DNA of 64,000 bases from Patescibacteria group bacterium (lineage in GTDB: Bacteria; Patescibacteriota; WWE3; UBA101185; UBA10185). Of this stretch, positions 38,490 to 64,000 are shown piece after piece; position 1 is the first letter of the stretch, and each line of letters opens with the position of its first letter. Under the pieces are notes generated by a model. It had not been told where the DNA came from, searched no databases, and saw only the letters and a program-made list of their open reading frames with translations. The stretch covers positions 12,299-76,298 of the forward strand of contig BPJL01000006.1 in the NCBI GenBank assembly GCA_026004595.1, read 5' to 3'. Both the position numbers and the translations under genes were made by a program.

Positions 38490-38564
38490 TGGAGCGGGTG
38501 ACGGGATTCGAACCCGCGACCTTTTCCTTGGGAAGGAAACGCCATACCACTAGGCCACACCCGC
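38490..38564 (-). tRNA. tRNA-Gly (anticodon CCC), CCA encoded
   Basis: Reverse complement: acceptor GCGGGTG/CACCCGC, anticodon stem TTTCC/GGAAA with loop TTCCCAA, T arm GCGGG-TTCGAAT-CCCGT, 75 nt. Confidence 0.8.
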
Positions 38565-38644
38565 ACCTCACGAAGATTATAGCAGTAATGTAGGCATCAA
38601 AAAACACCTAATGCGGCGTTTTTTTTGCTTTTAATTTCTTAAGA

Positions 38645-39753: not shown

Positions 39754-41512
39754 ATGAATGAGAACCGCATCTCCAACAAGGAAGTCGTAGCTCAGCTTAA
39801 AGAGGTGCTTGCGGCCATGGATGTGAAGAATTTTAATGTTTTTAAGGTTCGAGCGTATCAAAATGCGATAGCTATACTAGATAACTTAACGGTTTCAATT
39901 TATGACCTTTGGGAAAACGGCCGACTCAAAGAAATTCCCGGTGTGGGGTCTGGTATATATTCACACCTTGATGAGTTGTTTAAAACAGGGTCGGTTAAAG
40001 AGTTTGAAGCCATAAAAAAAGGCCTTCCAGAAGGGATGTTCGGCCTTATTGGAATACGAGGAATAGGTGCGAGAAAGGCTTTCAAGTTGGCCACTGCTTT
40101 TAAACTTAACGATAGGAATACGGCTGTAGAAAAAGTAAAAGAGCACGCAGAAAAAGGAGACATTCAAAAACTTGAGGGGTTTGGTGAAAAATCCGAGGCC
40201 GATATTCTTGAGGCGATAGCGCAGTTTAAGATGACGAAGAATGAGAAACAGCGCGTCTTGTATTCAAAAGCCGAGGAAACAGTAGAAAGAATTTACACTT
40301 ATATGAAAAAGCTGGATTGTGTAGATGAAATAGAAGCTGCGGGTTCTTTTAGAAGGAAAAATGCAACTATAGGAGATCTTGATATTCCTATTGCAACAAA
40401 TGAACCGGAGAAAGCAATAGATCATTTTTTGATGTTTCCAGAGATTGATGAGGTTCTTGTGAAGGGAGATAAAAAGTGCAGCGTGGTTCTCAAAAATGAT
40501 TTGCAGGTTGATATAAGAGTTTCTACCCCCCAGGCCTACGGTGCCATGTTGCAGTATTTTACTGGTTCCAAACAGCATAACATCCTTCTTAGAAACTTTG
40601 CGCTCGCAAAGAATATGTCGTTGTCCGAGTATGGGATCAAAAAAGGCGGCGATACATACGAGTTTTCAGACGAACCGTCTTTTTATAAATTTTTGGGGCT
40701 TCCTTACATAGAACCTGAACTAAGAAACGGATCAAACGAAATAGAAGCGGCGTTAGAAAATAAACTTCCGAAGTTGATTGAAATTGGAGATATAAGGGGC
40801 GAAGTCCATACTCACACTACTGATTCTGACGGAGTTAATTCTTTGGACGAGATGGTTGCAGCGGCAATATCTTTGGGGGTACCAGTATTTGGGTATTTCC
40901 GATCACGCGCCAAGCGTTACCTCACGTGGGTATAGAGAAGTATCAGAGATAATTAAGAAGAAAAGAGAAGCTATCCAAAAAATAAATGAAAAGCAGGATT
41001 CTATCAAAGTATTCTTCGGTTATGAGGTGAACATCTTGGCAGACGCAACCCTTGGCCTACCTGACGAAATACTGGCAGAATTGGACTATGTAGTGGCTTC
41101 GATTCACACTTCCTTCAATCAAGACAGAGAGCAGATTACCGACCGACTGCTTGCGGCAATAGAGAATCCATATGTAAATATTATCGGACATCCTTCGGGG
41201 CGTCTGCTAAACGAAAGAGACCCGATAGATCCTGCTTGGGACAAGATATTTTTGGCGGCTCGAGATAATGGCAAAATACTGGAGATAAACGCCCAACCCG
41301 ACCGTCTTGATCTTCCAGACGATTTGGTGAAAGAAGCAATACAATGGGGAGTTAAGTTAGTGATAAGTACTGATGCTCATTCAGTAGATCAGTTTTCTTT
41401 TATGAAATATGGTATTTTCAACGCACGCAGAGGGTGGGCGGAGAATAAAAATATAATCAACACGTTGCCGTATGGAGATTTTGTAAAAGAAGCGAACATA
41501 CGCCTTAAGTGA
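39754..41512 (+). pseudogene. DNA polymerase X family (Pol-beta-like nucleotidyltransferase plus PHP phosphoesterase), interrupted by a +1 frameshift in G5 run 40875-40879 (pieces 39754-40935 and 40856-41512)
   Basis: Piece 1 has HhH motifs, the Pol-beta NT motif GSFRRKNATIGDLDI and PHP motif I (GEVHTHTTDSDG). Piece 2 in the +1 frame continues PHP (YQYLGISDHAPS ... ASIHTSF ... STDAHS). Removing one G restores ...AAAISLG-YQYLGISDH... Confidence 0.8.
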
Positions 41513-42133: not shown

Positions 42134-42601
42134 ATGGGTAAGCACGTACTGAATGTGAAGGTTGCAGTTTTGGCGTATTTTGAGAAGGACGGCCGGATAT
42201 TACTGCAGAAGAGAAAAAATTCGGGGTGGCGTGACGGATGGTACGGACTTGTTGCCGGGCACGTGGAGAATGACGAGCCTTACAAATCTGCCTTGCGCAG
42301 AGAGGTAAAAGAGGAGGTTGGTGTTGACGTAAGGGAAGAAGATCTGGAATTTGCGCACCTTTTGCTTCTTCCCGCCAAATTGTCTGATTGTCAACGTTTA
42401 TATGTTTATTTTAGGGTAACAAAATGGGAGGGGGAACCTAGCAACGCCGAGCCCGAAAGGTGCGACGATGTTAGATGGTTTGACAAATCCTCTCTTCCTG
42501 AAAACCTGATACCTGTAGTAAAATTCGGTATGGAAAAGATGACGGCTGGAGAGATGTACAGCGAGTTTGGGTGGGAGCCCGGTTATAAAGAAAAGCTATG
42601 A
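42134..42601 (+). CDS. NUDIX hydrolase
   Basis: Nudix box GLVAGHVENDEPYKSALRREVKEEVGVDV (G-x5-E-x7-REU-x-EE-x-GU). Confidence 0.8.
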   Translation: MGKHVLNVKVAVLAYFEKDGRILLQKRKNSGWRDGWYGLVAGHVENDEPYKSALRREVKEEVGVDVREEDLEFAHLLLLPAKLSDCQRLYVYFRVTKWEGEPSNAEPERCDDVRWFDKSSLPENLIPVVKFGMEKMTAGEMYSEFGWEPGYKEKL

Positions 42602-43495
42602 ACATATACCAGCAAATAGACAAAAACAAAAGGGACACGGCAGTTATTATTGCTTTGTTTATGGTTGTTATATCAGCGATTGGGTGGTTTCTCGGTGAAT
42701 ATTTTTATGAGGGTGCTGGAGTTTCATTTCTAGCTGCCGCGCTTATATTTTCCGGAATCTCCGGGATGATTTCATACTACAATTCTGACAAAATTGTTTT
42801 GAGCCTATCCCGCGCGAAGGAGGTAAGTTTTGAGGAAGCCCCTGACTTGCACAAGCTAGTTGAAAATATGAGCATCGCCTCGGGGATACCCAAACCGAGG
42901 ATTTATGTTATAGAAGATTCCTCCATGAATGCTTTTGCTACGGGACGAGACCCCGAACACTCTGTTATATGTTTTACCACGGGTATAATCCAAAGACTGG
43001 AAAAAAGAGAACTTGAAGGTGTTATTGCTCATGAGATGGCTCACATCGGAAATTATGATATTAGACTGATGTCTATAGTTAGTATTTTGGTGGGCACTAT
43101 AATGCTTTTATCTGATTGGTTTACGAGAGGCGCATTTTACGGAGGAGATAGGAAAAGGAGTTCCAACTCAAGTTCGGGTGGAAGCATTTTCTTTTTGGTG
43201 GGGGGTGGTGTTGCTTATTTTAAGTCCGCTAATTGCTACGTTAATAAAGTTGGCAATCAGCCGAAACAGAGAATATTTGGCTGATGCTACAGCAGCTTAT
43301 ATCACAAGGTATCCTAAGGGGTTGGCAGACGCATTGGCAAAGCTGGCTATGGATAAAGAAATTTTGGAGGCGGCAAACGGGGCAACTGCTCATTTGTATA
43401 TTGTGAACCCCATAAAGATTGGTGGAGCAGTTTCAAATCTTTTTTCCACTCACCCGCCGATTGAGGATAGGATAAACCGACTTTTGCAAATGTAA
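42598..43495 (+). pseudogene. htpX: M48 zinc metalloprotease HtpX, interrupted by a +1 frameshift in G6 run 43200-43205 (pieces 42598-43284 and 43178-43495)
   Basis: Piece 1: TM helices, HEMAHIGNYD (HExxH). Piece 2 (+1 frame): LIATLIKLAISRNREYLADA ... STHPPIEDRINRL, the conserved HtpX C-terminal motifs. Deleting one G gives the contiguous ...SIFFLVGVVLLILSPL... Confidence 0.8.
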
Positions 43496-43847: not shown

Positions 43848-45282
43848 ATTAAATGAACTCACTATAAGAAGCGCTTTGGAAGGTTTGAAAAAGAGAGATT
43901 TCAAATCCGAAGATTTGGTGAATGGTTGTTTGGAGCAAATTAAAAAATATGATACGCAGATACACGCTTTCTTGAAAGTGGTTGAGGATCAAGCTTTAGA
44001 GAAGGCCAGAGAAGCAGATGTTGAAATAGTAACCAAGGGAGATACAGCTTTTATAGAAAAACCGTTGTTGGGGATTCCATACGCCGCCAAAGATAACTAT
44101 TCAACGAAAAATATTACCACAACAGCGGCATCCAAGGTTTTAGAAAATTATGTACCCCCTTTTGATGCAACCGCAATTAAAAAATTGAATGATGCGGGCG
44201 CCATACTACTGGGAAAGACAAATTTAGACGCTTTTGCTCACGGTTCTTCAACCGAAACATCTGATTTTGGAACCTCATACAATCCATGGGATCTGTCCAG
44301 GGTTCCGGGCGGATCTTCAGGTGGCTCGGCAGCCGCTGTAGCAGCCCATATGTGCCTTTTTGCTGTAGGAAGCGAGACGGGAGGAAGCACTCGGGGTCCT
44401 GCTTCGTGGTGTGGTGTAACGGGTGTCAAACCTTCATACGGACGAGTAAGTCGTTATGGAATTGTTGCAATGGCTTCGTCTACTGACAGCCCCGGGCCCT
44501 TGACAAAATCAGTAGAGGATTCGGCGCTAGTGCTTAAGGTAATGGCTGGTAAGGACCCTTTTGATGCAACATCGTCTCCCGCCGCAGTACCTGATTATCT
44601 GCACGAAGCCGAGTCTTATGATTTGCGCGGGGTAAAGATCGGACGACCTGTGTCTTTTTTTGAAATGGATCTAGAAGAGGGAACAAAACAAAAGGTTAAC
44701 GAGGCTGTAGAAATTTTTAAAAACCTCGGAGCCGAAATAATTGATGTTGATATGCTAAGTCCAAAATATTCCATCGCAGTTTATACAATTTTGCAGAGAT
44801 CTGAAGTTTCATCTAACCTCGCTCGTTTAGATGGGATTAGATATGGTAATGACCGCGTATCTTTCGGTTTTGAGGCCAAGAAAAGAATGATGCTTGGAGC
44901 GTACACCCTGAGCGCGGGGTATTATGACGCTTACTATGCTAAAGCTCAAAAAGTTAGGACCTTGATAAAAGAAAATTTTGATGAAGTTTTTAGAAAAGTT
45001 GATTTACTAATAGCGCCTTCTATGCCTTGTGTGGCTTTACCGGTTGGGGAAAGCGCAAAATCTCCCATGTTTGGGGAAATGATGGATGTTTTAAACGAAC
45101 CCGCATGTATTGCTGGCGTACCAGGAGTCAGCGTTCCATGCGGATTTGACGAGGGACTGCCAGTAGGTGTTCAAATCATGAGCAAAATGAACGAAGAGCA
45201 AAAGATTTTTGGCGCATTGTTAAAGTTTCAGAAAGCAACAAATTTTCATCTGGAAAAACCGGCGCTGATTAAGGAACAATGA
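43840..45282 (+). CDS. gatA: Asp/Glu-tRNA amidotransferase subunit A (amidase)
   Basis: Amidase signature GGSSGGSAAAVAA, catalytic K (AAKDNY) and S (GSETGGSTR). Probable GTG start at 43840 after RBS AAGGAG (43825-43830); listed ORF starts at 43816. Confidence 0.9.
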   Translation: MSKLNELTIRSALEGLKKRDFKSEDLVNGCLEQIKKYDTQIHAFLKVVEDQALEKAREADVEIVTKGDTAFIEKPLLGIPYAAKDNYSTKNITTTAASKVLENYVPPFDATAIKKLNDAGAILLGKTNLDAFAHGSSTETSDFGTSYNPWDLSRVPGGSSGGSAAAVAAHMCLFAVGSETGGSTRGPASWCGVTGVKPSYGRVSRYGIVAMASSTDSPGPLTKSVEDSALVLKVMAGKDPFDATSSPAAVPDYLHEAESYDLRGVKIGRPVSFFEMDLEEGTKQKVNEAVEIFKNLGAEIIDVDMLSPKYSIAVYTILQRSEVSSNLARLDGIRYGNDRVSFGFEAKKRMMLGAYTLSAGYYDAYYAKAQKVRTLIKENFDEVFRKVDLLIAPSMPCVALPVGESAKSPMFGEMMDVLNEPACIAGVPGVSVPCGFDEGLPVGVQIMSKMNEEQKIFGALLKFQKATNFHLEKPALIKEQ

Positions 45283-45336
45283 TGGGTTTTTTTTAATATT
45301 TTTTTTGGAACAAAAAGCGATAATACGGCTTATCGT

Positions 45337-47430: not shown

Positions 47431-49278
47431 ATGGTACTGAAATTTGATCCGACAAGTCCTCAATATGAACATATAACAACTTTAAATCAGGCTAATAAAG
47501 CCCTTGAAGAATTGGAAAAAAACAAGGTTGTGGGTGTGGACATAGAAGGTACAGGGCTTGATCCATATACTTCAACTCTGCTTTTGTTGCAGATTGGCAC
47601 TGAAACAAAAAGCTATATTTTTGACGCGCGCATCCTTAACCTAAAAGAACTACCCAGACTTAAGGAGTTTCTTGAGAACAAAAAAATATTAAAACTTCTT
47701 CATAACGGAAAGTTTGACTATCGCCACATAAAAATTCATGTGGGTGCAGAAATGGATAATTTGTACGACACAATGTTAGCCGAAGTCATACTTAATGCTG
47801 GTATCGGCCGAGGTTACTACTCACTAAAAGATCTTGCGAGGAAATATACAAATACTGAACTAAAAAAAGATGTGAGAGAAACATTTGAGGGTGTTACGAC
47901 GAGATCAAAAATTACAGAGGAACAGCTAAAGTACGCCGCTTCTGATACTTTGATACTCTTTCCAATATTTGACCAGCAGCTTGTAAAGGTTAAGCAAGAA
48001 GGTTTATTGAATGTAGCTAAACTTGAATTTGCGGCTACACGTGCAGTAGCAGAAATGGAATTAAAAGGAATCTATATCAATGAAGAAAAATGGCGCGAGA
48101 TAATGAGAAATCTTGCAGAAAAGAGAAATGCAATAGCAAAAGAATTTCAGGAGGCCGTTCGTCCATATTACACTCACAACATGATAGATTTGTTCGGCAA
48201 TCACGCTGATTCTATTAACATCAATAGCCAGCAGCAGCTTATGGATCTTTTCAATAATAAATTGGATCTGAATCTTCCTTCCACAGGTGACGCTATTTTG
48301 GCTACTGTTAACCACCCTGTTGTAAAGCTTTTAAGAAACTACCGCGGTTATGAAAAATTGCTTTCGGCATTTGGCGAAGGTCTTCTTGAAAAAATAAATC
48401 CGGTTACTAAGCGTCTGCATCCGGAGTTTAACCAGCTTGGAACAGCTACTGGAAGATTTTCGTGCAACAATCCCAATCTTCAGCAGATTCCGAGAAATTC
48501 AGATGAGGCGCCGTTTAGAACTTGCTTCAACCCCCAGCCGGGTTATAAATTAGTGACTGCAGACTACTCCTCTTTTGAAATGCGAATTTTGGCAGAGCTG
48601 TCGGGAGACGCAAAAATGATAAAAGCCTTGAACGATGGCTTGGATATTCACTCTTACACTGCTTCATTAATGTTTAACGTGCCTTATAGCGAAGATTTTA
48701 AAAAGAAATACCCAGCCTTAAGGCAAATTGCTAAACCTATCGGATTTGGTCTTATGTATGGAATGGGACCTGTTGGTTTAGCGGCGAGGCTTGAGAATGA
48801 AACAGGAAAACCTGTATCAAGAGAGCAGGGAGAGGACTACATGAACAGATATTTTGCAAGCTACCCAAGCGTTAAAAGTTATCTTGAAAGAACGGCAAAA
48901 AAAGCTGTTCAAGATGGTTACAGCACTACGCCTCTAGGGAGGAAAAGATGGTATGAACGCCCGGTAAAAGACGACCCAGATTTTAGAAAGAAAGTTTCGC
49001 GAATTGAAAGGGAGGCCAAAAACCATCCGATTCAAGGTACAAACGCCGATGCCATTAAATACGCTCTGATCTTTCTAAACGAAAGGTTTAAGAAAGAGGG
49101 AATTGACGGCGGCCTTACTTTAACTGTTCACGATGAGATTGTATCGGAAGTGGAGGCTGACAAGGCGGAATATTGGGCTGAGGTGCAATCTCAAGAAATG
49201 GTCAGGGCGGCCGAGCTTTTTATCAAAAGGGTAAAGATAGAGAGTGAGCCGTTTGTTGGAGATGTTTGGGAGCACTAA
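47431..49278 (+). CDS. polA: DNA polymerase I, Klenow-like (3'-5' exonuclease plus polymerase; no 5' nuclease domain)
   Basis: Exo motif [23 protein letters not shown]; polymerase motif A ([15 protein letters not shown]), O-helix ([16 protein letters not shown]), motif C ([11 protein letters not shown]). RBS AAGGTGG. Confidence 0.9.
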
Positions 49279-53689: not shown

Positions 53690-53764
53690 TGGTGAGGGCG
53701 GTGGGGATCGAACCCACGACACGCGGCTTAAAAGGCCGCTGCTCTACCACTGAGCTACGCCCCC
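53690..53764 (-). tRNA. tRNA-Lys (anticodon TTT), CCA encoded
   Basis: Reverse complement: acceptor GGGGGCG/CGCCCTC (one G-U), D arm GCTC/GAGC, anticodon stem GCGGC/GCCGC with loop CTTTTAA, T arm GTGGG-TTCGATC-CCCAC, 75 nt. Confidence 0.85.
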
Positions 53765-53839
53765 TTAAAACTTTCACATTATACACAACAAAACCCTGCA
53801 GTTAAATGATAAAAGCTCAGAAGATAAATTTTAATAGTA

Positions 53840-54235
53840 TTAAGCAAGCTTTTCCAGTATTTGTTTTGTGGCGTTATTTACGTCGCTGAAAGTTATCCGA
53901 TCCGTGTAAGCTTTTGGTTCCTGCACGTCGTTCCTATAGACAAGAATTACTTTTTTACCCAAAAGTGAGGCGAGCACTTTCTCTATTGTGAGTCCCGTGC
54001 TTTTAACGTTGCTGGTGATGTAGGCAATAAAGACATCACTTTTTAGTATATTCCCAAAAATAGCAGGAAAGGTTTTCCATAGCGGAACCGAGCCCTCCCA
54101 TTTCTGTACGTCCCTTCCTAGTATAAAAGTCTGATGCCCACCACTTTCCAATCCTTCCGCCAACTGCAAAAGATCCCTGACGAGGGATTGCTTGTCTTCA
54201 ACTCGTGAGTATTTATAGCCTATAAAGAGCCGCAT
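53840..54235 (-). CDS. Hypothetical protein (possible nucleoside 2-deoxyribosyltransferase-like fold)
   Basis: 131 aa; MRLFIGYKY...HQTFILGRD...SDVFIAYI...GLTIEKVLASLLGKKVILV loosely fits the flavodoxin-like NDT pattern. Weak. Confidence 0.4.
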   Translation of the reverse strand: MRLFIGYKYSRVEDKQSLVRDLLQLAEGLESGGHQTFILGRDVQKWEGSVPLWKTFPAIFGNILKSDVFIAYITSNVKSTGLTIEKVLASLLGKKVILVYRNDVQEPKAYTDRITFSDVNNATKQILEKLA

Positions 54236-54319
54236 ATAAACAATATTAGCACTTCTGAAAAAAGATTACCTGGTCTGTAAACTGATGGACCTAGTTGATT
54301 TTAGCAAACTTGTTGGCTA

Positions 54320-55642
54320 CTAACTTTTTGTAACAAAACTAACGATATCACCTGCTGGGACGCTGTTCTGTTCGCCCGTTTCCATATCCTTGACGGTAAT
54401 CCTTTTATTTTTAACTTCATCCTCACCGATTATGGCCACAAATCTCACCCCGGATTTTGAGGCGATGCTTAATTTCTTTTTAAGACCCTCACCTGTGTAT
54501 AAAACATCAGCCTGTATATTGCTTTTTCTAAGATTAGCTACTAAGTCGTAAGCCAGATTTGTGTAATCTCCTAAAGGAATAACTAAAACTTTCAAAGTCT
54601 GGCGGTCAGTATATTTAAGAAGGTTATTTTCTTTCAACAGGTCAAAAAGTCTAGTGAGTCCTATCGAAATTCCCGTTCCTGGCAGTTTTTTATCTGAAAA
54701 GTACTCTGCAAGATTGTTGTATCTACCTCCTCCACAAATGGATCCGAACTCCGGATACTCAGTCAATACTATCTCAAATATTGTTCCGGTATAATAGTCA
54801 AGACCCCTGGCTATGGATAGATCTATGGTCCAGCATGATTTAGGTATATTCATATAACCTATGTTTTTAACTAGATCTTCGATTTCTTTCACCCCCTCAT
54901 CAAACGTATCGTTTGCAACATTTAACGATTTTAGTTTTTTTAGCACATCTGCTACCGACCCCGCGGAATTTATAAAATCAAGAATTTTTTCCGTCTGGTT
55001 TATATTTACACCCATTTTTTCAAAATCTTTAGCAACCATTTCTTCGCCGATTTTTTGTACCTTATCTATCTCTCGTAGGATTTCTTTTGTTTTTTTATTG
55101 AGTCCGAGTTTTTCAATGTAGCCGGTTAGTAGTTTTCTGTTGTTGATCTTTATTAAGAAGCTACCTAAGTTAAGTCGTTCAAAAGTGGTGTAGGCGGTTG
55201 CAACTATCTCGGCATCGTAGATGGGAGCTAAACTGTCCTTATCGATTATGTCCACGTCACATTGGTAAAATTCCCTGAACCGCCCTTTTTGAGGACGTTC
55301 CCCGCGAAACACTTTACCTATTTGATATCTTTTAAAAGGGAAAGACAGCTCGTTGTACCTTTGGCTTACATATCTCGCAAGGGGAACCGTAAAATCAAAC
55401 CTCAATGCCATTTCGCTGTCACCTTTTTTGAAGGTGTATATCTGCTTTTCGGCTTCCTTCCCGCTTTTTGCCAACAAAATATCAGCTTTTTCAAGCACAG
55501 GGGTATCTAACGGTAAGAAACCGCACAATTCAAAGCTTTCCCGTATGGAGTCCAACATTTTGTTAAATATAACCTGGTCGCGAGGTAGTAGTTCCATAAA
55601 ACCGGGAAGTATTGTGGGTTTTATAAAAGTTTTTTCAACCAT
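54320..55642 (-). CDS. hisS: Histidyl-tRNA synthetase
   Basis: Class II motifs: GFLPLDTPVLE (motif 1), RYQIGKVFRGERPQKGRFREFYQCDVD (motif 2), C-terminal anticodon-binding domain. Confidence 0.9.
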   Translation of the reverse strand: MVEKTFIKPTILPGFMELLPRDQVIFNKMLDSIRESFELCGFLPLDTPVLEKADILLAKSGKEAEKQIYTFKKGDSEMALRFDFTVPLARYVSQRYNELSFPFKRYQIGKVFRGERPQKGRFREFYQCDVDIIDKDSLAPIYDAEIVATAYTTFERLNLGSFLIKINNRKLLTGYIEKLGLNKKTKEILREIDKVQKIGEEMVAKDFEKMGVNINQTEKILDFINSAGSVADVLKKLKSLNVANDTFDEGVKEIEDLVKNIGYMNIPKSCWTIDLSIARGLDYYTGTIFEIVLTEYPEFGSICGGGRYNNLAEYFSDKKLPGTGISIGLTRLFDLLKENNLLKYTDRQTLKVLVIPLGDYTNLAYDLVANLRKSNIQADVLYTGEGLKKKLSIASKSGVRFVAIIGEDEVKNKRITVKDMETGEQNSVPAGDIVSFVTKS

Positions 55643-56078
55643 AGCTTACCAATTTTACCGCAGTATTGCTTTTGCATAAAGTTTATTTGAGCAAAATCAA
55701 AACTAGTGGTTATGAGCTTTTTTAATCAAACTTGGTTTTTACCTCTAAATTTGGTGGTACTGCTGGAAAAATTTTATTTGGTATCAGGATTGTAGGCGAA
55801 GATGGTAATTTTATAGTTGTGGTTGCAGCCTTCTTCCGGATGACCGCAGGGTACGCAGCTTCAGCTGGGTTTTTTATGCTAGGCTATCGTTGGGTTTTCA
55901 GAAAAAAAGGAAAATCTTATATGGTATGATAGGTTGTTTGCCACCAAGGCTTAAAGCATAGAAAGCCCTTTTTGGGAAATTTTGTTTCTGTTTTTATATA
56001 GCTTCAGTTTTGCAGCTTCCTTATCTATATACATATTTACTGTAATTAGATTTTTGTATTAAAAACCCTTTTTGATAT

Positions 56079-56106
56079 TGACAAATCAATCCTTAATGAT
56101 TAAATT
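56079..56106 (+). promoter_or_regulatory. Candidate sigma-70-like promoter (TTGACA-17-TAAATT)
   Basis: TTGACA at 56079-56084, 17-nt spacer, TAAATT at 56101-56106, in AT-rich DNA about 300 nt upstream of the 56407 gene. Confidence 0.3.
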
Positions 56107-56406
56107 ACTCTACTTATAGGTTAGGGGAGTACAAGATATAGACTTATAGTAATGTGTGCGTTTGAGTGTTGTTGCTACACACAATCGGAGATTCATATAA
56201 ACTTTGTTCTAGTGTTTTTGCCCTTCTGCCGAAAAGATATTTCATAACAGATTTGGGAGTTTTTTTCAGCCTTCGGAGAGTATGTACTAAAATATATGGG
56301 TCCTTGGTATTTGCATGAGGTTGTGTGCGGAGTGTTTTTGTTTGAAAGTATTCCGGGCACAGGCTCAATAAAGCCAACCTAAATAAATATTGAAAGGAGA
56401 GCTGTT

Positions 56407-56706
56407 ATGGTCAAGAGCCACGTCAGCCGGGATCCGGGTATATTTGAGCTGATAAACAGAAACCTGCGATTGGTGCTTAAGTTGTTAAAGGACAAACGTG
56501 TTCCTTTTCTTCTTAAGCTTTTACCAATAATAGGTGGAGTGTGGCTAATTTACCCCGACCTTATCCCGGGACCGCTGGACGATGTTTTGGTTATCTACCT
56601 CACGTTTTATGGTTTCATTGAACTGGCTCCGGATGAAGTTGTAAAAGAACTTCGTAAGGAAGTTAGTCATGGAAAGGAAAACGTGATAGAAGGCGACATC
56701 GACTAG
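56407..56706 (+). CDS. DUF1232 (YkvA-like) membrane protein
   Basis: RVPFLLKLLPIIGGVWLIYPDLIPGPLDDVLVIYLTFYG matches the DUF1232 core; RBS GAAAGGAG. Confidence 0.55.
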   Translation: MVKSHVSRDPGIFELINRNLRLVLKLLKDKRVPFLLKLLPIIGGVWLIYPDLIPGPLDDVLVIYLTFYGFIELAPDEVVKELRKEVSHGKENVIEGDID

Positions 56707-56712
56707 CTACCA

Positions 56713-56750
56713 AGAGAGAGCTTTTATATTCAAAAACAAAAGCTCTCTCT
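56713..56750 (+). terminator. Terminator-like perfect 13-bp hairpin
   Basis: AGAGAGAGCTTTT (56713-56725) pairs with AAAAGCTCTCTCT (56738-56750); no clear U-tract. Confidence 0.45.
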
Positions 56751-56818
56751 GTATCCTTAGGAATTTTGGATCTTGATCATTTTGTTTGTCCGTCCCGGCC
56801 ACTTGCGCCGTGCGGATG

Positions 56819-56929
56819 TACTTTGAAAACACAACAAGAAAGAGGTGGTTGCCCTACTTAGGTTTGCACCTTCGAGACTTTCAGCATGCTGGAAGTTTTG
56901 CAGGTGCGTAGCCTAATAAGAGGCAGCCA
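56819..56929 (+). promoter_or_regulatory. Repeated leader element, copy 1 (box A, box B, hairpin, box C)
   Basis: Box A 56819-56842, box B GGTTGCCCTACTTAGGTTTGCACC, hairpin GCACCT (56866-56871) / AGGTGC (56902-56907), box C GGTGCGTAGCCTAATAAGAGGCAGC. Same architecture as copy 3. Confidence 0.55.
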
Positions 56930-57023
56930 TATCAATAAGTGAAAGGAGTAAAAAATTGGAAAATACCTGTTTCCTAGTTTCGAATTGCCAGTAAGTCAAC
57001 CATTGAATAAAACGGAGGTAAAA

Positions 57024-57281
57024 ATGCAAACGTTAGTTAGCAACATAATTTTTTTGAGTGTGCTGGTATTCGCAGCAGCTTTGGTGATCTTTGGATTGCT
57101 GAAGTTCATCAAGGTACTTAAAGGAGAGCTCTCTGTAGGTGAGGCTCTGATGGCCATAGGCGGTGTGGTAATCGGTGCAGCAGTTGTAATATGGGCTGCG
57201 ACCGATTTCAACGGGAGCAGGATCATAATCGATACGGTTGGAAAGTGGATCATCCAGATTCTAACCGAGCCCCTAGGCTAG
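57024..57281 (+). CDS. Small 2-TM protein (VirB2/TrbC pilin-like topology)
   Basis: 86 aa from the ATG after RBS AACGGAGG: hydrophobic leader (IIFLSVLVFAAALVIFGLL), charged loop, second hydrophobic segment (ALMAIGGVVIGAAVVIWAA). Listed ORF begins at 56985. Confidence 0.5.
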   Translation: MQTLVSNIIFLSVLVFAAALVIFGLLKFIKVLKGELSVGEALMAIGGVVIGAAVVIWAATDFNGSRIIIDTVGKWIIQILTEPLG

Positions 57282-57288
57282 GTTAGCT

Positions 57289-58869
57289 ATGAAGACAGCT
57301 GCTGTTCCAACAATCCTGGTGGGCGCTCTTCTGCTTACTGGATGTGCGGAAAAACCGGATAATCTGGAGGTGTTTTTTGATTGGCGGCAAAAATTCTTTT
57401 TGCATGTTGATCAACAGACGGTAGAGCCTTGGGTAGGGCCGGTTTTAAGGCTAGCGGTAGCAGTAGCCTTAGTTCTTTGCTTACTGGTGTTGATACACAA
57501 CCTGAAAAGTGAAAGGCCTATCTGGGGTTATAATTTCATCACAGGTCTCTCAATTTTTGTAGCGATCGCTTTAGTGTATTTTTACATCCCCGCAGCTACA
57601 GCTTTTGGTGAGGCCATAATGCCCCCAGAATTAACGCTTGATAGGGTTTTTTCAGCTCTAAGGTTAGGGTTGGACGGAGGTTTGGCTGACTTGCTTGTAG
57701 GAGGCTGGGCTATAACCTTTACACTCGTTCTCCCGCTCTTTTCGGCTTTTTGGGAAATAATGATGTTGTTGGGTGCCGTTGTTGCTCTAATAGCAACAAC
57801 TTTAGCAAGAAGCATGAAAGGTATCGTTTACATTGTAACGCAGGTGTATGGATGGGGATCTTTCCTTGTTCTTTACAACACCTTAATATCGTTGATCGAC
57901 CGTTACTATCCTACATGGGATTATATGCCTGTAAAGATATTTGTAACGGCGTTCTATGTAATGGTATCTGTCACATTGCTTCTTTTTTGCTACATTGGAA
58001 TACCCTTCTTTGCAATCTCCCTCGTGCCGAGATCAGATGACGAATACAAATCATCTGGAAAGAAAAGGGAGGAAAGAATACGGGACTCCAAAGTGGATTG
58101 GGGGACTATTTTTGCTCCCATACCCATACCCAACGACTCGCCGGACGATGAGCCTGATCAAGATCGATACCATAGTAACGACAATTACGATGATGAGGAT
58201 CCTTCAGATGGTAGTATAAATCCCCAACTACCCCGGGGTCCGAGTGGTGGTGGATTGGGAGAGGTTATCGAAGCACATAAAGGAGATATCCCACCGACTA
58301 AAGTTTCTCGTTCGGAAACTTCGGAAACTAGTAATGGCGATGAACCTGATCCCAATAAAATACTTTTATCGAAAAGTTCGAGATTGGGTTCCAACATTGA
58401 ACACAAAGATTCCAGAGTTTCCGAAGAGGTTGTTGATTCTGTTGAGAACTTCCCTTCGAGTAAAGTTAAACAATTAAAAAGCTTGGAGAGTGGTTCCCGA
58501 TCTGCGGAAACAAGTCGTCCTAACCGGAACAATGGAGATTCCAACCGCCTGGAAATAGATGTCAAAAAAGACAAGCTAAAGAAAGATAAGGCCCACGTAG
58601 AATTTCTGGACAAAACCGGCAAAGTTTTGGAGGTCGTGGGTGTTGTTACCGCATCTCCTAAAGTCGTAATTTTCGGCAAGGGTGTTGAGTTAGCAGCCGA
58701 TGTGTTGGACCGTGCTACGGAAGAAGGTGCAGATACAAAGAAGGTTTTGGATCATTCTGCCAAAGAAGTAGCCAAACGGGTTTTGCGAAACAAATACCCA
58801 GACTTGGTAGAATTTGCAGTCGGCAAGGACGATCGGGACGAAAACAAGCTTAACATGGAAGGAGGGTAG
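57289..58869 (+). CDS. Polytopic membrane lipoprotein with long acidic/Ser-rich disordered C-terminal domain (VirB6-like architecture)
   Basis: Lipobox LLLTGC, about 6 TM helices, then ~270 aa low-complexity D/E/S/K/P-rich tail. Confidence 0.6.
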   Translation: MKTAAVPTILVGALLLTGCAEKPDNLEVFFDWRQKFFLHVDQQTVEPWVGPVLRLAVAVALVLCLLVLIHNLKSERPIWGYNFITGLSIFVAIALVYFYIPAATAFGEAIMPPELTLDRVFSALRLGLDGGLADLLVGGWAITFTLVLPLFSAFWEIMMLLGAVVALIATTLARSMKGIVYIVTQVYGWGSFLVLYNTLISLIDRYYPTWDYMPVKIFVTAFYVMVSVTLLLFCYIGIPFFAISLVPRSDDEYKSSGKKREERIRDSKVDWGTIFAPIPIPNDSPDDEPDQDRYHSNDNYDDEDPSDGSINPQLPRGPSGGGLGEVIEAHKGDIPPTKVSRSETSETSNGDEPDPNKILLSKSSRLGSNIEHKDSRVSEEVVDSVENFPSSKVKQLKSLESGSRSAETSRPNRNNGDSNRLEIDVKKDKLKKDKAHVEFLDKTGKVLEVVGVVTASPKVVIFGKGVELAADVLDRATEEGADTKKVLDHSAKEVAKRVLRNKYPDLVEFAVGKDDRDENKLNMEGG

Positions 58870-58870
58870 T

Positions 58871-59182
58871 ATGAGTCCCTTTTCCTTTCTTGGTGACAGT
58901 AAGATGAGATCGATCAGATATAAACTGTTCGATCATTCTTACACTATCCTGCCGGTTTGGGGTGTGATCGGAATCTTATTTGTTTCCGGTCTGTTTCTTT
59001 ATTTCGGCGGGCTCCGTTGGGTATGCCATGGTACTTCGGGAATAGTTTTTGTTTGGGTAGTTTTCACTCTGCTCAATAAAGTCCTGAAAGCTCGGGCATA
59101 CAAAAAAATCAGCGAAAAGAGCAGACGTGACCAATCCGAGGTAGTTGTTACCTACCTTTCGGATCCCCCGTACCGCTCCTAG
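58871..59182 (+). CDS. Small 2-TM membrane protein (VirB3-like size and topology), immediately upstream of the ATPase
   Basis: 103 aa from the ATG after RBS GGAGGG; helices ILPVWGVIGILFVSGLFLYFGGL and GIVFVWVVFTLL; basic C-terminus. Listed ORF begins at 58814. Confidence 0.5.
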   Translation: MSPFSFLGDSKMRSIRYKLFDHSYTILPVWGVIGILFVSGLFLYFGGLRWVCHGTSGIVFVWVVFTLLNKVLKARAYKKISEKSRRDQSEVVVTYLSDPPYRS

Positions 59183-59191
59183 AAACTTGAA

Positions 59192-59227
59192 AGGATAGGG
59201 TTTTTCCCCAACCCTATCCTTTTCTCT
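59192..59227 (+). terminator. Rho-independent terminator
   Basis: AGGATAGGGTT (59192-59202) pairs with AACCCTATCCT (59210-59220), followed by TTTCTCTC. Confidence 0.6.
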
Positions 59228-59349
59228 CTTTCTTGTTGTGGCTCTTTTTGAGTTTTCAATATATTTGATTATTCAAAAAGAGGGTACGAGAAACAAATAA
59301 TTTGCAAAAACATCATAGATGTTGGCACTTTGAAAACACAACAAGAAAG
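59225..59349 (+). promoter_or_regulatory. Repeated leader element, copy 2 (partial: 16-mer TCTCTTTCTTGTTGTG plus box A only)
   Basis: 16-mer at 59225-59240, identical to 62821-62836. Box A ACTTTGAAAACACAACAAGAAAG at 59327-59349, identical to copy 1. Confidence 0.5.
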
Positions 59350-59476
59350 CTAAGAAGAGATTATGTTTTTGTTGAGCAGGGCACCTAAAAGAGCCTGAAC
59401 ACTGTCGGGTTCTTTTGGGTGTCATGCTCAATCAGGGCTTGAACATAATAACTAAATCAATAAGAAAGGAGTTGAG

Positions 59477-61417
59477 ATGGATCTGAAAAAACTTTTATTT
59501 CCGGGAACAGATGCAAGATTGTTACCTGAATCCTCCGTGTTTTTAAACGCGGTAACCAGGGAAGAGACAATTAGTGCTCGAGAGCTCCTTGGTGTGACGA
59601 TCCACCCCGTAAAGGGAGGTGCTGCTGGTGTCAGAAGTACGAATGGAGGTGCTACGCGTGTAATCGCATATCACCAAAGCTCTAAATTCACCGATGGCAG
59701 CGGTTTGGATATACGGCAGGCTTACAAGTACACTTCTAACTTAACAATGTTGCTTAGGCTGGTTAAGCACTACCCCGCCTCTTTTGTAAGGCATGTTCAG
59801 AACGAAAAGGATGGTGAAAAAACAGCCCGTACCGAATTTCTCGATGATGTCATGGAGTGGGCACTTCCTCGGAAAGGAAAGATTAGCGGTCATGATCTGT
59901 TACTTTGGGGAGATTTAGGAGCAATCATTCCCGAAAATAGGGAAGAGACGGCATCGTTACATGGAAAGATTGTTTCTTATCTTCAAGCCGCGTCTGTACT
60001 TCGGAGTGTAATTTTAAGTACCCCAATGTCTCTGGAAGATGCAAAGTACGACTTGATCACAAAAAGCTATGATGCAGTTTGGTATGCTGCACCCAGAAAA
60101 GTGTTTTGGTACCCTGATTTTTATTCGCTACCGGACTCTAATTTGGCATACGCTTTTTGGAGTGGTGTGGTATCTCCTGAGAATATCCGTGAACTAATGG
60201 ATATGGGAGATATACTGCTCTACACGGAGGTGGTCGAGGGTTATCTTTACGCGACCGCTATACTTCGTGTGGTAGTGCCGATTAGAAACGGAACTGCTGA
60301 CTTTTCCTCTGAAACCTCCCAGCTGATGAAACTGGGCAAATGGGAGAGGCGGACAGGTGCGGATCTGAAAAAAGCATTTCAGGCCTTTGTTCCAGGAAGT
60401 GCACCACCTCCGGCATGGGACAGGCACTCAGTACACAAGCCGAACTACGTTCTGTCGGCCATTCAAAAGTCTCTAAAGAATGTTGGGGATAAGAACGGAG
60501 ATACTATGAGCGGTTTCATAGATGACGAGCCGTTCTTTCTCAACAACCAGCTTCGTCCCAGTCGTATCTACTTAGGGCCCAGCAAAGTGGGAAAGTCTAC
60601 CCTTGCTGCAGCACACGTTTTGCAAACCAATGGCTGTAGGGTCATATGGATGCCACTGACAGCGGGTCAATTTGAATCCGCACCCCATTGGGTAGAAAGA
60701 TTCGAAGGAACTGTAATAAACTTAAATCTTCCGGATGCATATACACTTCATAGACAAAACGATAAGCAAAACGGAACCAGGCCTACACGTGTCGATATGG
60801 TGGCCAAACAAGAGGAGTTGCACGTTGAGGACAAAGAAGCGGCCGAAAAGACAGTAGCAAAGCTGGAGGCTGAGTGGTATCAGCGGGGTAAGATTGTAGG
60901 GTTGCCGCTTACGTTTCGTGTTAAGTCAGGCGACACTGTACGATTGCTGAACTGGTACAACCATTTCTTAACTGCTATGAGGGAGGCCTGGAAAAGGTGG
61001 TACGAGCTTACCGGAGAACTTGCCACCATCGTTGCAGACAATTTCAGTGCGTTGAAATTATCGGACAACGACCCCTTGTTAGGTGAATTGCCTGCGGCAA
61101 TAGGGGAGAATCTAGGACTAAACCTAGCTTGGTTGGTATCTAACGGTCGAAATATTGGCCTTTCATGCTGGATTACGACTCATAGCAAGGAAGATCTTGA
61201 TCATATAAGCACCGGCCTATTCAACCAGTTTGGATTGTGCTTCAACCTCAAACACAATGATTTCACTTTTTGTGAGGTCAGCCAGCCGAAAGATCGAGAT
61301 GTTTTGGTACCAAAGCTCTATATAAAGCTTCCTTATCCCATCAAACGCGTTGTTGAAAGACGCGAGCCGAACCTGGATGAACTGCCGTGGACGCAAAAAG
61401 AAGTTTCCGCGGACTGA
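59477..61417 (+). CDS. FtsK/HerA/VirB4-like P-loop NTPase (divergent)
   Basis: Walker A GPSKVGKST (60575-60601), then CRVIWMPLTAGQFE (the hhhhD-x-x-GE-Y spacing seen in VirB4/HerA/FtsK ATPases). Walker B-like TIVADNF (DN not DE) and arginine-finger/TQ-like LSCWITTHS. No TM; RBS AAAGGAG. Confidence 0.6.
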   Translation: MDLKKLLFPGTDARLLPESSVFLNAVTREETISARELLGVTIHPVKGGAAGVRSTNGGATRVIAYHQSSKFTDGSGLDIRQAYKYTSNLTMLLRLVKHYPASFVRHVQNEKDGEKTARTEFLDDVMEWALPRKGKISGHDLLLWGDLGAIIPENREETASLHGKIVSYLQAASVLRSVILSTPMSLEDAKYDLITKSYDAVWYAAPRKVFWYPDFYSLPDSNLAYAFWSGVVSPENIRELMDMGDILLYTEVVEGYLYATAILRVVVPIRNGTADFSSETSQLMKLGKWERRTGADLKKAFQAFVPGSAPPPAWDRHSVHKPNYVLSAIQKSLKNVGDKNGDTMSGFIDDEPFFLNNQLRPSRIYLGPSKVGKSTLAAAHVLQTNGCRVIWMPLTAGQFESAPHWVERFEGTVINLNLPDAYTLHRQNDKQNGTRPTRVDMVAKQEELHVEDKEAAEKTVAKLEAEWYQRGKIVGLPLTFRVKSGDTVRLLNWYNHFLTAMREAWKRWYELTGELATIVADNFSALKLSDNDPLLGELPAAIGENLGLNLAWLVSNGRNIGLSCWITTHSKEDLDHISTGLFNQFGLCFNLKHNDFTFCEVSQPKDRDVLVPKLYIKLPYPIKRVVERREPNLDELPWTQKEVSAD

Positions 61418-62767
61418 TAGGGTGTGCCATTATCCCCGGCATCCCAATAATGCTTGTGATCTGCTTATTAAGTCTGATCCTAGCATTGGGATACATGCAC
61501 GATACAGACCCTAAGGCATACAACGAATACATCGGAGATGTCTTGGGTCTGTCCGGGGGGACTTGGTACACCCTCACACCGGACGATGAAGAGCTAATTC
61601 TGGAACTGGGATTTGATCCGGCGGTTGTAGCCAACGAAATTATGGCCAACCGCTGGATCAATGAAAATGGCGGAGAGATAGACCTTGGTATTCAGTTGGC
61701 CATTTTGGAAGGAGAGTCCAAGGCGGGAAAAAACATGGGAACATGCAACGGATTACTTTCCGCTGCGAAATTTTCAAGGCAGGAGGTAGAAGCAGCAGAG
61801 TGGTTGTTAAGACGCTGGAGCGCAGCCGGAATACGAGACTGGTCAGAAATTGCACGGAAAATGGTTACGCCTGACTACAGTGACTACACAGCACACTGTT
61901 CAGCCGGCGAGATAGGACCTAACGGTATTCTTCCGTCGACAGGTGTCACTATATGTAAGTATGGGCTTTCAGAGCACCCTAACCCATTGGTGCGTTCCTG
62001 CAATTTTTTTGATGAAAGGGTTGCGCCTTATGGAAAAAATTGGTGGTTAAAAGCTATCGGATACAAATCCACAGCTTCAAAATCCGATAATTTTGAAGCT
62101 CTGTACGGTTGGAACCATAGCGAGTTCTATAGGACACAGTTGCTCGAAAAAGCTGATTATTACAATAGTTTTTTTCGACAATTGGAAAGGGAATCCACAG
62201 GAAAACGAAATATATGTTTTCAAAGGAACATTGTTGCAAAGTATCGCAGTCAAATTCCTGAAATATGTCGGTCTTCTGTCGGCAGAGGTTTACGCTGCGG
62301 GTCCTGACGAGGGCGCTGGAGAAGCCTTGCCCATTGATGGTTTCGTCCACCCTTACCCCGGGGGTTTTCTTTGTGGATATGGTTTCGGAGTCCCTGTTGC
62401 GAATGGTATTCACTGGGGGGTAGACCTGTGTTTTGGTTCTCCTTGGAAATCCGCTCCCATCTACGCGATGCACTCCGGTAAAGTTGCCTTTGCAAGGTAT
62501 CTTTCCCCCAGCGAACCATTAGCGGGACAATGGTGGATTTCCGGAAATGTAATCGTGATTGAAGGAAAAGATGCTTCCGGAAATACAATCTGGACAGCTT
62601 ACGGCCACGGCCTTAACGGTAGTATGGAAGTTGAGGTCGGAGATGTTGTAGAGAAAGGCCAGAAGATCATGATGTCGGGGTCAACAGGCTTTTCTTCGGG
62701 TATTCACCTTCACCTGGCTATGAAAGTTAACGGTCGGTGGGTGAACCCCGCAACATACCTAAAATAA
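61387..62767 (+). pseudogene. Membrane-anchored bifunctional peptidoglycan hydrolase (SLT-like lytic transglycosylase plus M23 peptidase), interrupted by a +1 frameshift (pieces 61387-62307 and 62093-62767; probable site T7 run 62169-62175)
   Basis: Piece 1: TM (IIPGIPIMLVICLLSLILALGY), SLT-like ILEGESKAGKNMGTCNGLL (Glu-Ser catalytic pair). Piece 2 (+1 frame): M23 motifs HWGVD, YGHG, GIHLHLAM. Confidence 0.7.
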
Positions 62768-62948
62768 GGGCGATTGATGAAAGCAGATTTTTCTCTTTCC
62801 AGTCGCCCTATCTCTAAATTTCTCTTTCTTGTTGTGTAAGCGCAAGGATTTATATTTTATGAATTTTTACGCTTCGGTTTCAGATAGATTTTTTTTGGAA
62901 CCGCTATAAATACAAACTGCCCCCTGCTTTATTAATAAGGAGAAAGGC

Positions 62949-63083: not shown

Positions 63084-64000
63084 GTGAATAAAGGATTTGC
63101 TGCGGTATTGCTGCTCTTTCTTGTACTATGTGGCACATTGGGTTTTGTAGTTTTTGGGTTGAATATTGTGGGAAGAGCGGACGTGCTCAAAAGCCTAGTA
63201 CTACCTGATGTAAAGAGTATCTTGACGGTATGTACCACAATGGTTGTAATAATAATTACATCCCAGGTTCTTTCATTTTGGGTTGCAAGGCTTGGGAAAA
63301 GTGTTGTCCACAGCTATTTTGACCGAAGGTGGCTCCCTAAAGAGAACAATAGTGAATCGTACACAACCTCATACGGAGAACGGCTCGAAAAAGTTGTATT
63401 ACCTAGTTATCTTGGAACAACGGTTTGGGATCTTGCCGCGCACACCTTTCCGTCAATGTTCGTTGTCAGCTTAATTGCAAGTATCGCGGTTTATGTGATT
63501 CTAACTGTAGCGGGTATTGGCGCTTTTCAGGTTTGGGTTATCTTGACCCTACTCATTCTAGCTTGTAATTTCATACTCGTCCCTGTCACGTATTGGATTA
63601 AGGAGTGGAAAAGGAAATATACAAAGTTCATCATATTTTCCTTCAATGTCATATACATTGGTGTAAAAACACCGATTCTTGCTTTGTTTTTCTGGAAGGG
63701 GAGCTTGCCGCAGAAGAGCAGAACTCCAATTACAGAAGTTTTGGAAATACAAATGTCGGCCGATCCCCAGCAATTCAAAGAGGAGTATCGTACCTCCTGG
63801 CTTAGGGACCAATGGACATCAATACTATCCAGGCGAGTAGGTTTGCGGACAATCTTTCTAAGAAGCCGCAGTAATAAAGCGGAGGATATCATTCTTTGGA
63901 TCGATAACGGTCCGGCGATAGATAAAATCCTTCGAAATCTTAGCGAAAAGGCTTTGAGGTCTCAATTGGGGGCTGGTCTAATTGCTCAAACTGTGGCCAA
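63084..64000 (+). CDS. Polytopic membrane protein (at least 6 TM), partial; VirB6/TcpH-like by context only
   Basis: Open frame (frame 0) from GTG 63084, 5 nt after RBS AAAGGAGG, to the window end with no stop (traced codon by codon). Hydrophobic helices (FAAVLLLFLVLCGTLGFVVFGL, ILTVCTTMVVIIITSQVLSFWVA, FVVSLIASIAVYVILTVAGIGAF, VWVILTLLILACNFILV). Missed by the ATG-based ORF track. Confidence 0.5.
   Translation, partial: MNKGFAAVLLLFLVLCGTLGFVVFGLNIVGRADVLKSLVLPDVKSILTVCTTMVVIIITSQVLSFWVARLGKSVVHSYFDRRWLPKENNSESYTTSYGERLEKVVLPSYLGTTVWDLAAHTFPSMFVVSLIASIAVYVILTVAGIGAFQVWVILTLLILACNFILVPVTYWIKEWKRKYTKFIIFSFNVIYIGVKTPILALFFWKGSLPQKSRTPITEVLEIQMSADPQQFKEEYRTSWLRDQWTSILSRRVGLRTIFLRSRSNKAEDIILWIDNGPAIDKILRNLSEKALRSQLGAGLIAQTVA

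Follow-up and report, generated by a model that had tools for sequence, protein, structure and literature searches.

A predicted membrane-anchored dual peptidoglycan hydrolase beside a VirB4-like ATPase gene in candidate division WWE3, and the probable assembly origin of its frameshift

A stretch of 64,000 nucleotides (nt) from a Patescibacteria group bacterium of the class WWE3 (GenBank assembly GCA_026004595.1, contig BPJL01000006.1, positions 12,299 to 76,298 of the forward strand; hereafter the window) carries two overlapping open reading frames (ORFs) that, judged by comparison with orthologues, are the halves of one gene. This gene would encode a type-II membrane-anchored, bifunctional peptidoglycan hydrolase whose extracytoplasmic part comprises a lysozyme-like or lytic-transglycosylase-fold domain followed by an M23 zinc endopeptidase, and it would be translationally coupled to the upstream gene of a VirB4-like ATPase. 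The enzyme may open the wall locally, either the cell's own or possibly that of a host, so that a machine resembling a type IV secretion system (T4SS) can assemble or reach across. Taken as a whole, this explanation, in which the split of the gene is an over-call of a run of six thymines (T6), is considered highly probable; the enzymatic activities, the topology and the link to machine function are its predicted components.

ORF1 and ORF2 (Table 1) overlap by 215 nt, and removal of one T from the run of seven (T7) shared by both fuses them into a single ORF of 459 amino acids (aa). The fused protein has 14 full-length relatives, annotated as candidate division WWE3 or Patescibacteria, each of which is encoded by a single ORF of 459–469 aa (55–68% identity, E values from 1e-155 to 1e-292, with 92–100% of the length of the 459-aa protein covered by the alignment). 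The alignment of the 15 sequences is collinear over the junction, where the linker sequence itself is not conserved. In GTDB genomes and metagenomes, nine orthologous loci likewise have the gene as a single unbroken ORF; no T-run occurs at the equivalent place and the codons there differ. As the orthologues are all single ORFs and no pair of separate conserved genes was found among them, the proposal of a preliminary description of this DNA, namely that one gene is interrupted at T7 by a frame change of a single base, is borne out. It is very improbable that the two ORFs are independent genes, one for a glycosidase and the other for an M23 peptidase read from its own start: a TTG at 62231 preceded by AAAGGA makes a 178-aa M23-only ORF formally possible, but a single ORF is found in each of the 14 orthologues and in every close relative, a product of ORF2 only would be devoid of any export signal, and the C-terminal 44 residues of ORF1 are out of frame and have no counterpart in the orthologues.

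The GTG start of the hydrolase gene lies within the last 31 nt of the upstream ATPase gene; the orthologues start at the equivalent N-terminal position, on ATG, GTG or TTG, and their overlap with the gene upstream is 34 nt. The product of ORF1 read from the ATG at 61450 matches exactly the NCBI protein GIW70040.1 (KatS3mg101_0787, from a Patescibacteria metagenome-assembled genome, MAG), and the frameshift is therefore present in the deposited record.

A near-identical hydrolase also occurs on a JGI contig of 768 kb. When the window was set base by base against the JGI contig (99.5% identity), the sole out-of-frame insertion or deletion in the gene was T7 versus T6 at 62169, and one further indel, of 3 nt, was in-frame. 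The alternative site offered in the preliminary description, a run of five adenines at 62201–62205, could be set aside, as it is in fact A4 (62202–62205) and is the same in the relatives. On the 3' side of the shift, comparison with the T6 allele shows two synonymous substitutions and a single K-to-R replacement in the window, and the M23 half has no sign of decay at the sequence level. T6 together with an intact gene was found in four independent near-identical assemblies (the JGI contig and the Logan assemblies SRR6488498, SRR5011275 and SRR28264341), and every assembly other than the window has T6. Exact 29-mers beside the T-run had no match in the genome or metagenome contig collections, which thus yielded no extra alleles. 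An apparent natural truncation of 291 aa (P0022) was rejected: it comes from a chimeric Logan contig (L020, SRR6488498_165) that still has T6 and in which window positions 59756–62240 are joined to the reverse complement of 62331–62901. This inverted join is a palindromic mis-join of short-read assembly and no natural variant.

The KatS3 MAGs derive from Katase hot-spring sediment and were assembled with metaFlye 2.8.3 from PacBio Sequel II HiFi reads (>Q20); in the supplementary table KatS3mg101, the MAG that holds the window, is assigned to class WWE3 and genus UBA8498, with 18 contigs, 1.04 Mb, 67.95% completeness and 5.668x coverage (PMC9671151). Further assemblies of the same population were retrieved by means of an identical NUDIX protein, three Logan assemblies being 99.91–99.92% identical to the window, and discrepancies were called by comparing the window with all five or six assemblies covering each site. 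Four homopolymer discrepancies were found in 9.4 kb, about one per 2–3 kb. At 40875 the window has an extra G (G5 at 40871–40875, versus G4 in six other assemblies) which, within 39754–41512, splits PolX into a polymerase-beta-like core of 393 aa and a PHP ORF of 218 aa; the PolX-PHP protein is intact (585 aa) in all relatives. At 43200 a G6 (43195–43200, within 42598–43284) in place of G5 cuts an M48 peptidase to 228 aa, versus 298 aa in relatives. At 45287 a T8 (45280–45287), versus T7 in relatives, falls at codon 3 of a 131/132-aa ORF between gatA and gatB, which explains why this ORF is missing from the ORF list of the window, and at 38618 the window is one T shorter than the other assemblies. 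A reference-free scan for ORF pairs that can be repaired at a homopolymer returned both 62169 and 40875; it flagged ordinary adjacent genes as well and serves as a cross-check only.

Given this pattern of one-base homopolymer miscalls, the T7 of the hydrolase gene appears to be one more of the same kind, and it can be stated with strong confidence that it is a one-base over-call of T6, that is, a consensus error in a 5.7x HiFi/metaFlye MAG. For this reason the organism most likely has an intact 459-aa gene, and the frameshift is very probably not a biological feature, considering the depth of the assembly, the sister discrepancies and the T6 of all other assemblies. Some observations count against an error at T7. 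The assessment rests on assemblies rather than on reads, and a genuine T7 in the Katase population is therefore conceivable. The T6 assemblies all differ from the window by ~0.3–0.7% over the region, and therefore none of them is the very same strain there. The run lengths at 55902, 56068 and 56259 are the same in a Logan contig from DRR290133, so that some of the homopolymer differences from the JGI strain need not be errors; DRR290133 itself is presumably the Katase HiFi run, to judge from 100% identity.

This DRR290133 contig is 100% identical to positions 53729–62174 of the window and ends right after the sixth T. Its other end is inside a tRNA gene, and both ends therefore resemble graph branch points. 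The break fits reads split between T6 and T7, a typical low-depth HiFi error. Exact protein look-ups for the continuation of the contig and for the annotated ORF2, with eight predicted partial proteins and a number of other starts, found no match in the collection.

If T7 were a real allele, the gene would be a recent strain-specific pseudogene of the Katase hot-spring population, its product would be a membrane-anchored glycosidase ending in 44 out-of-frame residues, and the cell would export no M23 domain. This is unlikely. At least six Ts are read in the deposited record as well as in an independent k-mer assembly, the metaFlye consensus is T7, and other decay occurs nearby in the lineage, where an RDD gene is down to 73 aa and its 368-aa neighbour is lost; on the other hand, the 5.7x coverage and the error-prone homopolymer context, the one-base changes of the same kind that break housekeeping-type genes intact in 99.9%-identical assemblies, the absence of further damage in the M23 half, and the conservation of a single ORF across the class, tightly linked to the ATPase gene even in distant relatives, all speak against a pseudogene. 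A phase-variable contingency switch, in which slipped-strand mispairing between T6 and T7 turns the M23 half on or off within the population, is more doubtful still. Among close relatives T6 is indeed seen in four assemblies and T7 in one, and the stop of the Logan contig exactly at the T6/T7 decision point suggests that both lengths occur in one read set; were such heterogeneity true, a subpopulation would carry the glycosidase only at the secretion machine, and the contig end is the only hint of it. Against the switch, six or seven Ts are short for a contingency tract and nothing unusual here (runs of seven or more bases number 30 for T and 25 for A in the window), the tract is not present in the orthologues, low-coverage HiFi homopolymer errors account for the same branch, and the other discrepant runs sit in genes without any reason to phase-vary. 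Homopolymeric U or A runs can promote slippage, and programmed recoding of a genuine T7 gene, either by +1/−2 ribosomal frameshifting or by transcriptional slippage on U7, would rely on this property. It is the least probable of the alternatives and appears effectively refuted by the lack of conservation, as neither the slippery run nor the frame change is shared: close relatives are in-frame with T6 and the orthologues have no T-run.

The protein encoded by the intact gene begins with a basic stretch (MDAKRSFRG, residues 1–9) ahead of a hydrophobic helix that is conserved in the orthologues, in agreement with the transmembrane (TM) anchor of the preliminary description; this arrangement would place the N-terminus inside and the catalytic domains outside. 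All the motifs quoted in that description (ILEGESKAG, HWGVD, YGHG and HLHL) are present.

The claim of an SLT-like domain between the anchor and the M23 domain holds at the level of the fold and fails at the level of sequence families. Pfam gave no hit with the single ORF1 sequence, and with 12 family members the best result was SLT_2 in one of the 12, below threshold (E=0.055; 13.1 bits versus a cut-off of 24.3 bits); a PDB profile search with the N-terminal domain (residues ~75–262) gave no match either. Because whole-protein Foldseek searches were swamped by M23 matches, a construct of residues 38–262 (window 61498–62174) was modelled alone (predicted local distance difference test, pLDDT, 89.3; predicted template modelling score, pTM, 0.84), and the fold search, the only test that worked, returned a lysozyme-like alpha-helical fold. 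The domain is thus predicted from its model to have a lysozyme-like or lytic-transglycosylase fold and to cleave glycans, a fold that does not tell lytic transglycosylase from muramidase chemistry. Within the ILEGES motif, E110 is the presumed catalytic acid, putatively equivalent to the catalytic Glu of SltB and MltB. Family 3 lytic transglycosylases (SltB1, SltB3 and MltB; Pfam SLT_2) are 18–20% identical to the domain with no significant sequence match, and they differ from it in four invariant cysteines (C120, C171, C190 and C205) which are peculiar to the WWE3 hydrolase family.

The C-terminal M23/LytM domain named in the preliminary description is recognized by standard searches. ORF2 matches Pfam Peptidase_M23 (PF01551) with E=7e-16 (58.6 bits versus a cut-off of 28.7 bits), a PDB profile search with this part finds LytM (2.9e-8), and the profile and Foldseek matches include LytM, lysostaphin, ShyA and Csd3. 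Across the 15 aligned sequences the zinc ligands and catalytic residues, namely H342 and D346 (HWGVD), H407 (YGH) and H440/H442 (HLH), are either invariant or conserved at 90% or more. The domain may therefore be regarded as a bona fide M23 peptidase with a complete-looking active site and predicted zinc endopeptidase activity, as the HxxxD, catalytic His and HxH elements are those of LytM/lysostaphin-type enzymes. It differs from the latter in that a membrane anchor and a glycosidase domain precede it in the same polypeptide, and from EnvC and the LytM domain of PrgK in that its active site looks complete.

The gene overlapped by the hydrolase start encodes a P-loop ATPase of 646 aa that had no hit in Pfam, NCBIfam or PHROGs and no match in PDB with a three-sequence profile, and two word-indexed homologue searches retrieved WWE3 orthologues only. 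Its family comprises 82 representatives at 50% identity. A profile of 52 sequences matched EccC (5e-6), FtsK (4e-4) and VirB4 (4ag5; 0.009) in PDB only around the P-loop. When the same profile was aligned by hhalign with eight Firmicutes VirB4 sequences of the PrgJ/TrsE type, a probability of 88% was obtained (E=3e-6, 186 columns), and the aligned region reaches ~140 residues upstream of Walker A. This suggests that the ATPase is probably a highly diverged VirB4. Two points pull the other way: hhalign against PrgJ alone gave only 4%, and the homology rests on the single result of 88%, with nothing specific in Pfam, NCBIfam or the PDB sequence search. The assignment is short of certain because of the low value with PrgJ alone and the negative Pfam result.

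The order of genes around the hydrolase is the same in every locus examined from WWE3, an uncultivated class: a protein of ~100 aa, one of ~85–90 aa with two TM segments, a polytopic membrane lipoprotein of ~500–526 aa, a protein of ~103 aa with two TM segments, the ATPase (~650 aa), the hydrolase, and a protein of ~400 aa with five TM segments. The hydrolase gene begins inside the 3' end of the ATPase gene in each of these loci. The 526-aa protein has a long, acidic, disordered tail and no family hit (NCBIfam and PHROGs included), and the 103-aa and 85-aa proteins are placed provisionally, by position and topology, as VirB3/PrgI-position and VirB2-like components. An M23 protein is also encoded right after the ATPase in two distant members of the ATPase family; in one of these loci the hydrolase has a faint Pfam SLT hit and the complete gene order is preserved (proteins of 97, 526 and 95 aa, the ATPase, the hydrolase and a protein of 478 aa). 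In pCF10 the order is PrgH (VirB6), PrgI (VirB3), PrgJ (VirB4), PrgK (hydrolase) and PrgL. The secretion-machine context suggested in the preliminary description is thus supported by the position of the hydrolase start within the end of a VirB4-like ATPase gene and by the PrgH/I/J/K-like order, and it is likely from this synteny that the hydrolase is the wall-opening enzyme of a Patescibacteria T4SS-like machine.

Table 1. Features of the hydrolase gene and of its neighbours (positions of the window).
Feature	Position	Strand	Details
Protein of 85 aa, two hydrophobic helices, VirB2-like topology	57024..57281	+	hydropathy; conserved in cluster
Polytopic membrane lipoprotein of 526 aa, VirB6/PrgH position	57289..58869	+	hydropathy; lipobox-like LLLTGC; synteny
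Protein of 103 aa, two TM segments, VirB3/PrgI position	58871..59182	+	hydropathy; synteny; pCF10 gene order
Divergent VirB4-like P-loop ATPase (probable), 646 aa	59477..61417	+	Walker A GPSKVGKST
Whole hydrolase gene	61387..62767	+	GTG start; 459 aa after loss of one T from T7
ORF1	61387..62307	+	frame 1; 306 aa
ORF2	62093..62767	+	frame 2; 224 aa
Signal-anchor helix, hydrophobic	61414..61494	+	residues ~10–36; sequence; AlphaFold2 helix 3–40; conserved in orthologues
Lysozyme-like/lytic-transglycosylase-fold domain (predicted)	61609..62172	+	residues ~75–262
Glu110-Ser111 (ES of ILEGES)	61714..61719	+	invariant in 15-sequence alignment
T7 homopolymer, frameshift site	62169..62175	+	T6 in every other assembly
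Peptidase M23 (LytM-type)	62411..62749	+	HWGVD 62411–62425; YGH; HLH 62705–62713
Membrane protein of 404 aa, five TM segments, start only	63084..64000	+	always follows the hydrolase; runs off the window

Several peptidoglycan hydrolases of conjugative systems are comparable to the enzyme described here. CwlT of ICEBs1 is a related VirB1-like enzyme of Gram-positive bacteria. TraG of pIP501 combines SLT and CHAP domains, as cited in a recent survey (PMC12102498). PrgK of the Enterococcus faecalis plasmid pCF10 is a T4SS peptidoglycan hydrolase of LytM-SLT-CHAP architecture, in which the LytM domain is degenerate and metal-free and the domain labelled "SLT" acts as a muramidase (PMC11323569). 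PrgK-class enzymes and the WWE3 hydrolase have in common an N-terminal membrane anchor with glycan-cleaving and peptidase domains in one polypeptide, predicted to be extracellular in the WWE3 protein, and for both PrgK and the WWE3 protein the gene comes right after that of the VirB4 or VirB4-like ATPase in the order VirB6-like, VirB3-like, VirB4, hydrolase. They differ in that PrgK has 871 aa, whereas the WWE3 hydrolase (459 aa) has the glycosidase first, then M23, and no CHAP domain; its M23 motifs are intact, unlike the degenerate LytM domain of PrgK; and its cluster is chromosomal and conserved class-wide, whereas PrgK of pCF10 belongs to a conjugative element. It tells against a close correspondence with PrgK that no sequence homology of the two hydrolases could be detected: their hhalign alignment reached a probability of 1.5%, with only the M23/LytM parts aligning.

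A further comparison, within the same phylum, is offered by the 2025 survey, in which the T4SS of Patescibacteria were described as monoderm MPF-FATA type with some VirB1 homologues that carry Peptidase_M23 (PMC12102498). The survey, which cites a transposon-sequencing study of Southlakia epibionticum, also states that this bacterium cannot grow epibiotically without the peptidase and lysozyme genes that lie immediately downstream of virB4 (PMC12102498). The WWE3 cluster resembles these systems in having a wall-degrading enzyme directly after virB4 and, as in some of their VirB1 proteins, a Peptidase_M23 domain; no relaxase or coupling protein is encoded nearby, a further likeness. It departs from them in that its ATPase is missed by Pfam and NCBIfam and that the lysozyme-like and peptidase parts are fused in one protein. 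WWE3 is not named in the text or the accessible supplements of the survey (PMC12102498).

The hydrolase thus adds a fused type to the known class of T4SS-associated peptidoglycan hydrolases, and the intact gene would contribute an enzyme with a lysozyme-like domain and an active-site-complete M23 domain to the virB4-adjacent wall-openers of Patescibacteria, which is of modest use for the study of host contact by epibiotic ultra-small bacteria. As the ATPase of the WWE3 cluster is too diverged for standard profiles, surveys based on hidden Markov models could miss the cluster. Homopolymer indels in low-coverage HiFi/metaFlye MAGs imitate pseudogenes or recoding sites, and frameshift findings in this genome should therefore be discounted when they come without read support.

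Additional features were noted in the neighbourhood of the cluster and elsewhere in the window. A 454-aa protein two genes downstream of the hydrolase, just past the end of the window (L001, 9031–10395), labelled "ATP-synt_ab", was considered as a secretion ATPase; it is instead a diverged Rho-like protein (NCBIfam Rho, E=1.6e-23, with a score far below the cut-off) and is not counted as part of the cluster. The RDD-domain gene at 55730–55960 (L001, 237–458) is a remnant of 73 aa, versus 184–191 aa in other WWE3, with A7 at 55902 in the window versus A6, the Logan DRR290133 contig agreeing with the window; the gene of 368–383 aa that precedes the RDD gene elsewhere is absent in this lineage. 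A family A DNA polymerase (47431–49278) has 3'-5' exonuclease and polymerase domains, and Pfam detects no 5'-nuclease domain in it. Homology of the window to its near-identical relatives ends exactly at the 3' end of a tRNA-Gly(ccc) gene (38490–38564 and upstream). At this point a serine recombinase of 529 aa occurs in three of the relatives (L014, 920–5641; L017 and L018), and two contigs (L013, 1699–4834, and L014) encode an 871-aa DUF87/TraG/VirD4-like ATPase and an ORF of 118–121 aa, which suggests a strain-variable element integrated at tRNA-Gly(ccc).

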